From a virus (taxonomy: Duplodnaviria; Heunggongvirae; Uroviricota; Caudoviricetes), in IMG/VR virus record IMGVR_UViG_2548876945_000007: DNA of 4,971 bases; one strand, written 5' to 3'. How positions within the stretch are numbered: the stretch's first letter is position 1; each line of letters opens with the position of its first letter. Below the pieces are notes generated by a model, which was given only the letters and a program-made list of their open reading frames with translations, did no database searches and was not told where the DNA came from. Below, piece by piece: positions 661 through 4,971 of the stretch. The position numbers were made by a program, and so were the translations under genes.

Positions 661-1050
661 TTACACCCCTATAGCGATATAACGACCTAATACAGCGTTT
701 GCAGCAGTCGCTATGCTTGAAAAACCGCGGAACTGATTTGATGTAATTGCAGAAGCCGACAGGATTCCTGCGCCTGAAGGTGTATGCCCCACATGACTAA
801 CTATCATTCCATAACATGCTGACGGAAAGGCAAAAGGAAAATCATTAAGATATCCGGCATCTTCACCACCAGACCCACCAAATCTCGCCTGCCCCCACTG
901 AATAATCAGTGTTCTCCGGGAACCTGAAATAATTAACGGAATCGTTACATACCCATTCAGACCAATGACACCCGATGCAGTGCCAGCCAGAGATAATTCT
1001 CCCAAACCAACGTTTATGAAAATGCAGAAATAACAAGCAAATGGCATCAT
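661..1050 (-). CDS. Tail fibre C-terminal variable (receptor-binding) segment, silent orientation copy without its own constant N-terminal part
   Basis: Gly/Ser/Ala-rich 129-aa ORF directly upstream of the tfa on the same strand. The frame is open only 9 codons beyond the listed ATG, up to a stop at 1077-1075, and the crossover site at 987-1012 lies inside its 5' end. This matches the Sv'/U' half of a Mu G-segment or e14 P-segment arrangement. Confidence 0.55.
   Translation of the reverse strand: MMPFACYFCIFINVGLGELSLAGTASGVIGLNGYVTIPLIISGSRRTLIIQWGQARFGGSGGEDAGYLNDFPFAFPSACYGMIVSHVGHTPSGAGILSASAITSNQFRGFSSIATAANAVLGRYIAIGV
987..1012. other. Hin/Gin/Pin/Cin-family invertase crossover site (hix/gix/pix-like), the right boundary of the invertible tail-fibre segment
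   Basis: The 26-bp sequence TTCTCCCAAACCAACGTTTATGAAAA has two imperfect inverted 12-bp half-sites around a central AA. It matches about 21 of 26 positions of hixL as I recall it (TTCTTGAAAACCAAGGTTTTTGATAA), including the AAACC..GGTTT-like core. It sits 65 bp upstream of the invertase start, where gixR/hix sites lie relative to gin/hin. Confidence 0.7.
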
Positions 1051-1076
1051 TCCTGCTTTTAGTAAAGAGATTGATC

Positions 1077-1211
1077 ATGCTGATAGGTTATATACGGGTA
1101 TCAACAAATGAGCAGAATACAGCATTACTAGGAAATGCGCTCGAGTGCGCAGGATGTGAGCTGATTTTTGAAGACAAAATATTTCGAACACTTCTCCCAA
1201 TTTTAAAGTGA
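1077..1211 (+). pseudogene. Truncated serine DNA invertase (Pin/Gin/Hin/Cin family); only about the first 35 codons are retained, then the frame reads into unrelated sequence and stops
   Basis: Translation from ATG 1077 is MLIGYIRVSTNEQNTALLGNALECAGCELIFEDKI, closely resembling the N-termini I recall for Pin/Gin/Hin (MLIGYVRVSTNDQNTDLQRNAL.CAGCE.IFEDK) and including the catalytic-serine context RVST. After nt ~1181 the translation FRTLLPILK-stop (TGA 1209-1211) has no invertase similarity. The ORF is too short to appear in the supplied track. Confidence 0.75.
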
Positions 1212-1275
1212 AGTCGATGGTTTATGCTGGTGCCACGATTATTTCCTCCTGCTTCCCGGTTCAGAAAACAGTCGC

Positions 1276-1304
1276 GAAGAACCAGCCTTAACAGGCTGGT
1301 TCTT
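1276..1304 (-). terminator. Putative intrinsic terminator for the 870-aa gene
   Basis: Inverted repeat GAAGAACCAGCC (1276-1287) / GGCTGGTTCTT (1294-1304) with a 6-nt loop, beginning 7 nt past the TAA stop (1313-1311). On the minus strand a TGTTTTCT run follows the stem after a 6-nt spacer, so the U-tract is not ideally placed. Confidence 0.45.
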
Positions 1305-1310
1305 ATCGGC

Positions 1311-3923
1311 TTAGCTTACAGCTTGATCGAGATCTTCAAGTGCACAAATCATGGTTTCTACTGTTGCTCGGTCAAATTCAGCCCTTCCATCTTCCTCATG
1401 TGTGCCTTTGTTAAGATAGCGCCATTCTCGCGAATCTCCACTAATCCCAGTCAAAACGTCAATTGGACCAAAAACAGCACTTTTATTTTGATCAGTAAAA
1501 TCAGTTTTATTAATCTGTTTTTTTAATTGATCTGACAAATTACGTAACTCAATAGGTGAATTTGCCGACCGTAACTTAAGGCTAAGATTACCGTCACCAT
1601 ATTTATTTACATAGCGCCAGACCTTCACCTTCATCAGCGATTCAAGTGCCTGTCTACATTTAGCGAGAGCTTCCCTAATTTCATTACGTTCGTAATGTTT
1701 TCGTGCCGAGATAATGTAGTTCCTAGGGGCGCAGTTGAAATCGACACGAATATGCAATTCATCTAGACGTGGCAAGAAAGTGAAAGTCTTGGATTGAGCA
1801 GCAACCCGCGTAGGCAGTAAATTTTGGATATCTTTAAAAAATTCCTCTCCATGACAAGCTAGAATGATTTGCTTTTCGGCAAAGAACGTATCTTCAAATA
1901 ACGTTTTTCGAATGGAATCTCTATGATCGTCATCAATAGCATTTACCGGATCATCAAAAATTAAAAGTGGGCACTGCTCATTAATGTTTTTTGCCAATAA
2001 GATCGCTAGTCCTATACAGCGCACATGACCTTCACTTAGCACATGAAGGGCATCAAAATATTGTACGGGATTATTCTGGAACGCCACTTCCAACCGTTGA
2101 TTTTGCATCAGAGGTAATTTGATATCAGCGAGCTTTTCGCCTCTGGAATCATTACGGTTAAACGCATTATAAAGGGTAACAATGTTATCTCCGAGATTTG
2201 CTACGAGTTGCTGAGGTAAACGATCTTTATAGGCGTTCAATCGAATAACAAAGTTGGAATATGCCTCAGAAATTTCTTGGTTTTTCCTAACAATAGCTTT
2301 CTCATGCTCAACTTCATCAATAAGTTGCCTATTTTCGGCATTAAATCTGGTAATTAGCAACTGAGCTTCAGAGATGGACTTCTCTGTTTCCTCTCTTTTT
2401 GTCTGTAATATAGTTATCTGTCGTTCGGTTTCACGCAGACTATCAAGAGATTGCTGTTGCAGTTCTCGTCGTTTAATATTTTCATCTGTTTTTTTATCCT
2501 CTTTCTCCAGATGATGTACCTGTTCTTCAAGAAGAGTCCAAGGGGGTATCCCATCACCTGCCGGTTGCTGTAGTGCACACCACAAATCGCTTCCAGTTTT
2601 ATTTCGGAAATCTTCAAGTGGATTGCTATGCGGAATGAACTGACAACAAGTACTAATAACTTTATGAACGTCGAACATCAGCTGGCTGATTGATTTTTCC
2701 AACTGAGTTATTTCGTCTTGTAGTGTCGATAAAAACTTAAGTTTAAGCAATTCATTACTGGCATATTTGTAAGGGTTTTTTGCAACGTGCTGAAGTGGGG
2801 TATGACATGCAGGACAATGGTCAGGCTTGGTGCTTTGCAACTGGACTACGGCTTCAAATAAATTTTTAAAAGAAATTTGCTGACTTGCCTCTGCCAGTTG
2901 ATTTTGCTTGCCCTTAAGGTCTGTAAGCCCCTTTTCGACTGAATCACTGAGCTTTTTCAAAATGGCAGAGGTTAGACCACTCTTGGCCGGAAGCTGTTTT
3001 TGTAACTCGGTTTCAAGCTGCCGAATGACGCCGATATTTTGCCCATCCCCCTTCAACTCTACAACCATCTGATGGAAAGATATGCCTTCACGATAGCCTG
3101 AGGCTAGAGTTTGTTCTGCTGAGGTTAGTTCTTCAAGGTGGGCCTTACTCGTTTTCAGTTGCTGCTGTGCTCCCAAGAGAGATTGGCTCTTTGTTGCTAA
3201 TTGAGCAGCCTTTACGCCAGTCAGGTCGATATATCGGGCATCAATATCTGAGGTGAAATTTCGCACAAAATCATTAAATGTATCCAACCCGAATAATGTT
3301 GATATAAGTTCGGCTTGCTTTGCTGGGGCCAGAGCAGCGATTCTTGAAAAGCTGTCGATACGATTCTTTTCAATAAAACAAAAGCGATATTGTGTTTCAT
3401 TATTCTCAATCATCACATCCTGCTCTTGATCTCCAACACCTATAATTTCGGGAGCAGAAAACTGATTGACATATGCGTTTCTAAAATAGTCGTGTTGATT
3501 ACGAAAACGCTTACTTTCTGCCTCCGCGACGCGGCCCAGTAATGCGTATTCAAGTGCCTCGCAGAAACTGGATTTCCCCGTACCATTGGGGCCGTAGATC
3601 AGCACTAGGCGGGAATCTAAATCAAACTCCTCTCGTCTGGCAAATCCTCTAAATGGTCCAACAGACATCTTTCTAAGTCGGCTAAAGGTGGAAACACTTT
3701 CGGCGTTCTGCTCAGGGAGTGTTTGGACTTCTGGGCTGAGTGTATCCCAGGCGGATTGAGCCAGAGCGACAATACGTTTGACCCGCTGACCCTGTGCGGT
3801 TCCCAACGGCACGATTTCGTCAAGATTTTCCCACACAAGATTTGCTATTTTCCTTACATCACTTGGTACATCTGCTGTATTTAAGGTTTGAAAAAAACGC
3901 AACAACTCACTGCCGAGCATCAT
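1311..3923 (-). CDS. 870-aa Rad50/SbcC-like ABC ATPase with coiled-coil arms, CxxC zinc hook and a C-terminal putative nuclease/effector domain; RloC-like candidate anti-phage protein
   Basis: Uninterrupted 2.6-kb ORF in AT-rich DNA. Walker A GPNGTGKSS (aa 111-119; nt 3567-3593), CPAC hook (aa 370-373; nt 2805-2816) between two Q/E/K/L-rich coiled-coil-like stretches, signature-like LSEGH (aa 629-633; nt 2025-2039), Walker B LLIFDD (aa 653-658; nt 1950-1967), D-loop-like PVNAIDDD, H-loop His691, then ~170 aa C-terminal extension (aa 700-870; nt 1314-1826). SD-like AAGGA sits 3 nt before the first ATG (3923) and 6 nt before the second (3920), so the true start may be the second ATG. Confidence is for a real CDS with an ABC-ATPase fold; the RloC-like functional call is about 0.5. 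Confidence 0.88.
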   Translation of the reverse strand: MMLGSELLRFFQTLNTADVPSDVRKIANLVWENLDEIVPLGTAQGQRVKRIVALAQSAWDTLSPEVQTLPEQNAESVSTFSRLRKMSVGPFRGFARREEFDLDSRLVLIYGPNGTGKSSFCEALEYALLGRVAEAESKRFRNQHDYFRNAYVNQFSAPEIIGVGDQEQDVMIENNETQYRFCFIEKNRIDSFSRIAALAPAKQAELISTLFGLDTFNDFVRNFTSDIDARYIDLTGVKAAQLATKSQSLLGAQQQLKTSKAHLEELTSAEQTLASGYREGISFHQMVVELKGDGQNIGVIRQLETELQKQLPAKSGLTSAILKKLSDSVEKGLTDLKGKQNQLAEASQQISFKNLFEAVVQLQSTKPDHCPACHTPLQHVAKNPYKYASNELLKLKFLSTLQDEITQLEKSISQLMFDVHKVISTCCQFIPHSNPLEDFRNKTGSDLWCALQQPAGDGIPPWTLLEEQVHHLEKEDKKTDENIKRRELQQQSLDSLRETERQITILQTKREETEKSISEAQLLITRFNAENRQLIDEVEHEKAIVRKNQEISEAYSNFVIRLNAYKDRLPQQLVANLGDNIVTLYNAFNRNDSRGEKLADIKLPLMQNQRLEVAFQNNPVQYFDALHVLSEGHVRCIGLAILLAKNINEQCPLLIFDDPVNAIDDDHRDSIRKTLFEDTFFAEKQIILACHGEEFFKDIQNLLPTRVAAQSKTFTFLPRLDELHIRVDFNCAPRNYIISARKHYERNEIREALAKCRQALESLMKVKVWRYVNKYGDGNLSLKLRSANSPIELRNLSDQLKKQINKTDFTDQNKSAVFGPIDVLTGISGDSREWRYLNKGTHEEDGRAEFDRATVETMICALEDLDQAVS

Positions 3924-3943
3924 AAATCCTTTTTACTTGTTGA

Positions 3944-3972
3944 CTTCTAACGTTATATTGCAATGTTAGAAG
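3944..3972. promoter_or_regulatory. Inverted repeat (possible operator) in the 5' leader/promoter region of the 870-aa gene
   Basis: CTTCTAACGTT (3944-3954) and AATGTTAGAAG (3962-3972) are reverse complements with one mismatch, separated by 7 nt, 21-49 bp upstream of the start codon. I could not assign a convincing -35/-10 pair by eye. Confidence 0.3.
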
Positions 3973-4560
3973 ATACACTTTCAGATTATTTTTTCACGTG
4001 ATCTGCAAATCAAATTTTTACTAATGCTGGCTGATTCGTTATCGACAAACATGTCTTCCTTTTTCCATTCTTACCAGCGATCAGCAAAGCAAATTACACG
4101 GACATGTTACCAGAGTGGCTTAAACATTCTGCTGGTGGGCGCAGTTTCAGAGTGAGCATTAATTAGCAATAACTTATCCAACCACCCAGAGCTATATCCC
4201 AAATGATGGGGTCAAAATGCAGTTGTTCATTACGCTCGCTCAGAAGCATAACGGCGCTACGTTGAAACGTCCGATGGATTCTGGATCGTATGGAATGTCG
4301 CGTTCAACTTCTTCATGGAGTAGGCGAGACAATCTTCACGCGTCATTGACTATGAAAAGCGTCCACACCTAGAAAACTCCGGTCACCTGTAAGATTGAAA
4401 GTATAAGGTATCGTTCTACACGAAACGATTTGACTCCTATAACTGAAAAGCGGTGTCGGTAGTTAAAGGCATTAGTGCCTATTTGGCATATGGAAGCTGA
4501 GAAAGAAAAGAATGGTACTCGTTGATGGGGATAGTTTAAGCACAGTAATTTAAGTAGATG

Positions 4561-4591
4561 AAAAAGCAAAAAGCCCACATCTGTGGGCTTT
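4561..4591 (-). terminator. Rho-independent terminator hairpin, strongest for transcripts arriving on the minus strand from higher coordinates; possibly bidirectional
   Basis: Stem AGCCCACA (4572-4579) / TGTGGGCT (4583-4590) with loop TCT. On the minus strand the stem is followed immediately by TTTTTGCTTTTT (complement of 4561-4571). On the plus strand only TTT follows. Confidence 0.5.
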
Positions 4592-4600
4592 CATGTCACT

Positions 4601-4633
4601 AAGGAGCCGCGGCTCCTTTGCGTATCCTTTTTT
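4601..4633 (+). terminator. Second GC-rich hairpin followed by a T-run; possible plus-strand terminator or structured RNA element
   Basis: Perfect 18-bp palindrome AAGGAGCCGCGGCTCCTT (4601-4618), then a TTTTTT run at 4628-4633 after a 9-nt spacer. The spacing is atypical for a canonical intrinsic terminator. Confidence 0.3.
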
Positions 4634-4708
4634 GTCTCCTCACCGTCTGGTCGGTGTCCTGCTGAGACTGCTAACTACCTGTTTTTGTTGGTGTTGTCCT
4701 TACACCGT

Positions 4709-4722
4709 CCAATCATGATTGG
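4709..4722. promoter_or_regulatory. Perfect 14-bp palindrome, candidate dimeric protein-binding site
   Basis: CCAATCATGATTGG is its own reverse complement. It lies in a region without a convincing ORF. Confidence 0.25.
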
Positions 4723-4971
4723 TGGAGCTGGCGGGAGTTGAAACCGCAGGCATGTCGTATGCAAGAACGTGCTGCGGTTGGCTGGTGAACTTCCGATAGT
4801 GCGAGTATTGAATGATTTCCAACTGTTATCGATTTTGCGTATTTTTTGCATGAGAGGATTTTTACCTCCTCCCACCGATCCTCCATGGCTTTACGCCAGT
4901 GTCTCTGGTCTGCTATGTGCCAGGAGCAGCCATTGCTAAGTCCATCCTGTATTGTGCAGGTCAGCTCGTTT

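Follow-up and report, generated by a model that had tools for sequence, protein, structure and literature searches.

Which function, if any, resides in about 1 kb of phage DNA that has no convincing gene and several strong secondary structures? The question is raised by positions 3924–4971 of the window, a 4,971-nt stretch of Caudoviricetes DNA. The sequence-only reading had offered three answers: a structured RNA, a small-protein partner of the adjacent gene, or decayed mobile-element sequence. Our analysis indicates that the region is very probably a non-coding mosaic at the cargo end of a thrW prophage, in which a phage-borne copy of the end of the tmRNA gene, ssrA, persists as an orphan half-attP.

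The sequence features behind the question proved largely sound. The longest open reading frame (ORF) in 3924–4971 is 69 aa, and the statement that the region contains no credible ORF holds. Among the small frames that had been singled out, the minus-strand ORF at 4675–4875 and the plus-strand frame opened by an ATG at 4885 and running off the window are as described, while the plus-strand ORF starting at 4217 ends at 4372 after 51 aa, and not at 4390 after 57 aa. All four structures exist where they had been placed. The strong hairpin assigned to 4561–4591 consists of AAAGCCCACA/TGTGGGCTTT at 4570–4591, with 10-nt arms that are 100% complementary; the 18-bp palindrome with a T-run is a perfect AAGGAGCCGCGGCTCCTT at 4601–4618, with the T-run at 4628–4633; and the 14-bp palindrome is a perfect CCAATCATGATTGG at 4709–4722. 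The stem described as CCGCAG/CTGCGG is also present; it is really AACCGCAG/CTGCGGTT, pairing 4742–4749 with 4772–4779. When the region was shuffled 5000 times, a perfect palindrome of at least 18 bp arose in 23 shuffles and one of at least 14 bp in 329; two terminator-like sites were found as compared to 0.7 expected by chance, and the 170-nt block at 4556–4725 folds better than 200 of 200 shuffles on both strands (z = −4.0 and −3.7). The structures in this region exceed chance.

The window is the right end, that is the accessory (cargo) end, of an e14/SfV-like prophage of E. coli. Its exact sequence is present in two public assemblies, in contigs that are 100% identical to it and reveal the setting: the integrase of the prophage is next to tRNA-Thr (thrW), a flxA-like gene follows the window immediately on its right, and the other prophage end falls at a yagP fragment next to paoD. 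The features discussed below are as follows.

Within the window: invertible tail-fibre segment with Caudo_TAP and Gp53-like_C domains
1077–1208, plus strand: stump of a Pin-type DNA invertase, a 44-aa N-terminal remnant
1311–3923, minus strand: SMC/LmuB-like ATPase gene, 870 aa
3924–4055, minus strand: upstream region and 5′ UTR of the ATPase gene, with one promoter-like site and one inverted repeat
4013→3985, minus strand: predicted promoter-like site TTGATT-17-AATAAT, its promoter function inferred from sequence
4056–4370, minus strand: SRAP/YedK-like pseudogene (SOS-response-associated peptidase), N-terminal half, about residues 1–109
4371–4567, no strand assigned: non-coding DNA between the SRAP pseudogene and the trailer, with partial homologies only
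4568–4719, minus strand: copy of the tmRNA gene 3′ trailer, the whole ssrA–ypjA spacer of island-free E. coli
4592→4569, minus strand: predicted intrinsic terminator, a 10-bp stem and 4-nt loop, then TTTTTGCTTTTT, the tail being given as TGCTTTTTCA
4720–4747, minus strand: tmRNA gene fragment, with the last 23 nt of ssrA (TTCAACTCCCGCCAGCTCCACCA) at 4720–4742, one mismatch, and CCGC
4744–4946, no strand assigned: lambda b-region-like spacer, 85% identical to lambda 24162–24365, between ea47 and ea31

The hairpin block finds its counterpart beside the host tmRNA gene. Positions 4568–4719 are 97% identical to the ypjA–ssrA spacer of strain VCSW7, an island-free genome in which the ypjA stop codon is followed by 9 nt, a 150-nt sequence and then ssrA on the opposite strand; 4568–4719 is therefore the complete ssrA–ypjA spacer, the 3′ trailer of the tmRNA gene. 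Taken as far as 4747, the block has a match in 5267 of 5426 E. coli genomes, in most cases at a site that overlaps the ssrA 3′ end. On the minus strand the trailer copy contains four stem-loop regions, including the terminator and the palindrome at 4601–4618, which is an inner trailer hairpin conserved only in its central 14 bp. The 14-bp palindrome at 4709–4722 is made of the CCA end of the tmRNA gene and the first trailer bases. Three of the four structures noted at the outset are thus trailer features, and the fourth is the stem of a dinI-type terminator. The hairpin at 4592→4569 has the sequence hallmarks of an intrinsic (rho-independent) terminator and is the predicted terminator of ssrA; at the native locus it lies 130–150 nt past the ssrA 3′ end and 9–10 nt from the convergent ypjA stop codon.

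Only the last 23–28 nt of ssrA itself are present in the window, in which ARAGORN reported 0 tRNA or tmRNA genes and Rfam gave no tmRNA match at E ≤ 1. In two sister loci, L141 and LT2-3, an intact tmRNA gene is found by the same tools and annotation; L141 shares the cassette of the window, and its tmRNA gene ends at the equivalent of 4720. A similar arrangement exists in K-12, where psaA, the ssrA fragment at the far end of CP4-57, also has trailer sequence joined to a short ssrA 3′ fragment and is, together with its spacer to ypjA, 94.6% identical to the window over 167 nt. However, psaA is a displaced host copy at the ssrA locus, abutting ypjA, whereas the copy in the window belongs to a prophage located elsewhere and borders on phage cargo. 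In K-12, CP4-57 has put a different arm immediately behind ssrA. As to origin, the phage block may be captured host DNA, or the host spacer may itself have come from a phage.

Integration into ssrA with duplication of a 3′ fragment is reportedly a long-established theme, and the layout of the window can be read against it. The lambdoid Escherichia phage LLS (PQ299149) targets the 3′ end of ssrA, and its attP has been placed in 29 bp identical to that end (PMC12315714). Like the window, LLS presents a tail-fibre invertase, cargo, a trailer of ~170 bp and an opposite-strand tmRNA fragment, which in LLS is a tmRNA pseudogene, and its order continues with attP and int. Its attP region is 87% identical to the window over 198 bp, and the trailer copy is 87% identical to an arm of the LLS attP. 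Unlike LLS, the window has neither an LLS-type integrase nor an integrase-side arm; its ssrA fragment is fused to lambda b-like DNA, its prophage resides at thrW, and its ssrA identity amounts to 23 nt, one mismatch and CCGC, as compared to 29 nt in LLS and in the LT2-3 prophage. This identity ends inside the stretch annotated as the LLS attP.

Sister prophages supply the missing context. Over positions 997–4747 the window shares 99.9% identity with prophages whose border with an intact tmRNA gene falls precisely at the equivalent of 4747; this join is seen in LT2-3, L141, L142 and L144 but not in the genome of the window. At the far end of the LT2-3 prophage, an integrase 86.7% identical to LLS Int lies next to a displaced 29-nt ssrA fragment. 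From the LLS layout, the join to intact ssrA and this LLS-type integrase, we infer that in the LT2-3-type lineage the block acts as an attP arm that would rebuild the ssrA end and supply the trailer and terminator. The LT2-3 prophage also carries a DarT/DarG (NADAR antitoxin) pair between its LLS-type integrase and the displaced ssrA fragment (L010 33203–34519), giving this prophage a second cargo slot, across the attachment site from the first.

We asked how the block is distributed among 120 viral contigs retrieved by a 31-mer spanning the trailer–ssrA boundary. Twelve of them show the arrangement of the window, with trailer, ssrA fragment and b-like sequence, all with a left flank other than ypjA, and in 34 the trailer is supplied next to an intact ssrA, again with a non-ypjA left flank. 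The same cassette, its block unrecombined, is found in a yjjG/prfC prophage with an unrelated integrase. No cognate integrase or second arm lies beside the core in the window, where the right side consists of the b-like spacer, flxA and the prophage end. As judged from these layouts, the block appears to be an orphan half-site both in the thrW prophage and in the yjjG/prfC prophage.

The resemblance to the LLS attP, and the fact that sister prophages integrated through the block, could also be taken to mean that the resident prophage uses it as a working attachment site, or that it is a tandem-element junction at chromosomal ssrA. We consider this very improbable: the identical contigs put the block between thrW and paoD, away from ssrA, the sequence to the right of the fragment contains no integrase, and the ssrA identity falls short of the 29 nt kept in LLS and LT2-3. 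A satellite or P4-like element inserted in a phage-borne ssrA fragment, as in strains 50EVAW and E6474, was considered separately and rejected, as the orientation of the integrase is unfit and the arrangement differs from that of the window's own genome.

An orphan half-site implies a junction on its right-hand side, and this junction can be located. The spacer at 4744–4946 resembles the lambda b region, with 85% identity over 203 nt, and is non-coding, because the frames of its ORFs change between homologues; these ORFs were accordingly discarded as genes. Its first ~100 nt (4744–4845), together with the stem at 4742–4779, elsewhere lie 3′ of a minus-strand dinI-like gene and provide its terminator, as seen in strain E1, L119 and L052. 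In L119 and L052 the stem is followed by TTTTTGAG on the minus strand, as expected of a terminator, whereas the window, which has no dinI gene, keeps only TTT of the T-tract, the rest having been removed at the join to the ssrA fragment. The junction falls in a short sequence common to both parents, GAACCCGCG in ssrA and AAAACCGCAG in the dinI flank, and the microhomology, AACC(C)GC, lies inside the annotated LLS attP core. Two variants of the junction between ssrA fragment and b-like DNA were observed, both falling in this microhomology, GAAACCGCAGG and GAACCCGCTGAC (window 4739–4749; L001 6797 onward), and the second variant, GAACCCGCTGACACG, occurs in other genomes. Integrase-mediated recombination with a secondary site would be an attractive origin for the junction, and the two variants are compatible with integrase action at such a site or with later gene conversion. 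Ordinary illegitimate recombination, and not integrase action, could also have produced it.

Taken together, these comparisons suggest the following reading. The core at 4568–4747 is a phage-borne copy of the last 23–28 nt of the tmRNA gene and of the entire 3′ trailer. Where such phages encode an LLS-type integrase, the block serves as one attachment-site arm, and upon integration into ssrA it replaces the gene end and supplies the trailer and terminator. In the window, the LLS-type integrase and the other arm are gone, and the remaining arm is fused within the crossover region, at AACC(C)GC, to a dinI-type terminator and the b-like spacer. In its present place, the hairpins would most likely stop transcription in both directions between two variable cargo slots, and the ~180-bp block, along with conserved tail-fibre DNA, would most likely provide the homology for exchange of the ATPase cassette between prophages and with the ssrA locus. 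What is left of the stretch consists of the inactivated SRAP gene and DNA upstream of the ATPase gene.

The SRAP remnant at 4056–4370 passes the Pfam cut-off (SRAP, PF02586; 32 bits against 27.1, profile positions 2–111 of 214), and tblastn with the SRAP protein of phage PHB10 gives 46% identity over 109 aa (E = 3e-19) with stops within the alignment. Its reading frame is not intact: there are 7 in-frame stops, the start codon has changed to AGG and the C-terminal half is missing. RefSeq annotates the equivalent segment of sister genomes as a frameshifted partial SRAP. By its profile match and its broken frame, the segment is assigned as an SRAP pseudogene. It shares 67–70% DNA identity over ~360 nt with the SRAP/YedK genes of lambdoid prophages (PHB10, Gifsy-2) and retains the catalytic Cys2 motif CGRF, but unlike those genes it comprises the N-terminal half only, interrupted by its 7 stops and without a start codon.

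Between this pseudogene and the trailer, 4371–4408 is homologous to the region upstream of SRAP in PHB10, and 4465–4566 recurs at 87% identity adjoining the ssrA trailer in other ssrA-linked elements. A distant DNA search with 4372–4567 returned the same 15 genomes that carry the whole segment 3924–4560, plus ~24 unannotated partial matches, and gave no source for 4409–4567. Inside a prophage, the stretch combines an inactivated SRAP gene, the relic of an attachment-site arm and a spacer resembling lambda; the suggestion of decayed mobile-element sequence was essentially right.

The adjacent gene encodes an 870-aa SMC-like product whose best PADLOC matches are LmuB (1e-26), mad3, PbeC and DndD; it is a candidate single-gene defence factor. 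The ATPase gene is alone in the cargo slot between invertase and attachment site, with no partner gene beside it. In related prophages this slot holds a restriction-modification pair, a DUF4145 protein or other genes instead. Of 5426 complete E. coli genomes, 15 carry the segment 3924–4560, each of them together with the 870-aa ATPase gene. An 11-nt inverted repeat, CTTCTAACGTT/AATGTTAGAAG, pairs 3944–3954 with 3962–3972, between the promoter-like site and the ATPase start codon, and could be an operator or a 5′ UTR hairpin.

Could the region nevertheless encode a small protein or small RNA that works with the ATPase? Its position directly upstream of the ATPase gene, the presence of several ORFs of 40–69 aa and a weak Rfam match to CssrB (RF02799) at 4704–4776 would speak for such a partner. 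The match, however, reaches 21.2 bits against a threshold of 76 (E = 0.38) and covers the terminal stem only. It is one of three weak, sub-threshold matches (isrK, CssrB and STnc410) in an Rfam scan of the window at E ≤ 1, none of which covers the trailer, and no family reaches its threshold. The isrK match falls within the ATPase coding sequence (2055–2112, minus strand), scores 23 bits where 50 are required (E = 0.057), and is most likely due to chance.

The ORFs fare no better. None of the seven small ORFs scanned matched a PHROG family, and those that could be checked are not maintained in homologues: the frames over the b-like spacer shift, and the 69-aa ORF (4369–4578, minus strand), rejected as a gene, has a stop in the STEC1589 homologue, the only diverged one available. 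The ORF at 4217–4372 runs antisense to the SRAP pseudogene on the plus strand. Moreover, the same hairpin block is found in other prophages beside a restriction-modification pair, a DUF4145 protein or a hypothetical protein, which argues against a partnership with one particular neighbour. We therefore find the proposal of a structured RNA or small-protein partner of the adjacent gene unsupported, the hairpin block being the host ssrA trailer, and give it hardly any credence. The earlier reading as a whole was borne out as regards decayed mobile-element DNA and failed as regards the partner.

A different possibility is that the trailer is itself a functional RNA. On this account 4568–4719 would be a conserved 3′ external spacer of the tmRNA precursor, acting beyond termination, for instance in processing control or as a sponge RNA, and phages would carry it because they are obliged to restore it on integration. 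We examined an alignment of 75 distinct trailer copies (A1), setting the helices by hand for pair counts, as RNAalifold missed the first trailer helix. Across the 75 copies, the five trailer helices are paired in 92% of cells, and collapse to 39–50% in register-slid controls; cells with a double change number 82 as compared to 29.5 in shuffles. Covariation is strongest in the first helix, where one pair is G-C in 45 copies and A-U in 25 and another is A-U in 36, U-A in 26 and C-G in 8, and in the terminator, where 61 copies have G-C and 13 have A-U at the stem pair of alignment columns 142/150, which is never broken. The unpaired stretches of the trailer are also nearly invariant.

Conservation extends across genera. 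Beside intact ssrA (loci L145–L158), the first 125 nt of the trailer are 88–92% identical between E. coli and Klebsiella, Raoultella, Leclercia and Trabulsiella, as compared to 96–97% for the mature tmRNA, ~58–61% for the 200 nt upstream of ssrA and ~52–55% beyond the terminator; genomes entered this comparison through an exact 31-mer match reaching 11 bases into the trailer, which places drifted trailers outside the sample. Between E. coli and Klebsiella, Raoultella and Leclercia, the DNA flanking the trailer is unalignable. No Rfam family covers the ssrA trailer.

These observations favour an RNA-level role, but several others weigh against it. Besides the choice of genomes by a 31-mer reaching into the trailer, the trailer could have been made uniform between genera by mobile elements that overwrite it, and symmetric changes in palindromes can arise by template switching without selection on the RNA. 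The window copy has no ssrA promoter, and K-12 manages without the trailer next to ssrA, CP4-57 having provided a different downstream arm. We thus regard the trailer block as a functional RNA in itself as possible, though unlikely. The broader proposal, that the trailer is a functional structured 3′ extension of the tmRNA precursor, undescribed as an RNA family, conserved in the Enterobacteriaceae and carried by ssrA-integrating phages, is more doubtful still. Such an extension would have been overlooked because CP4-57 separates the trailer from ssrA in K-12.

Our preferred reading thus remains the orphan half-attP within a non-coding mosaic, and this reading also bears on how the surrounding DNA moves. 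The 3.7-kb cassette at 997–4747 comprises the tail-fibre tip, the invertase stump, the ATPase gene, the SRAP pseudogene and the trailer. With the Pin-type invertase reduced to a stump, this prophage can presumably no longer invert the tail-fibre segment on the left of the stump. The cassette is flanked by conserved tail-fibre DNA on one side and the ssrA-derived block on the other, and its copies in prophages at three chromosomal sites (thrW, yjjG/prfC and ssrA) share 99.9% identity, which points to very recent exchange between conserved flanks.

The kilobase at 3924–4971 is thus real as an observation and ordinary in its explanation, and not a new RNA or small-protein gene. In annotations, it is best described as an SRAP pseudogene together with a relic attachment arm of the ssrA type and terminators; flagging it as a possible RNA or small-protein gene would be misplaced. 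Of wider interest is only the trailer, as a 3′ extension of the tmRNA precursor, with its conservation and covarying hairpins across genera. Finally, 997–4747 illustrates how a defence-like ATPase cassette moves between prophages.
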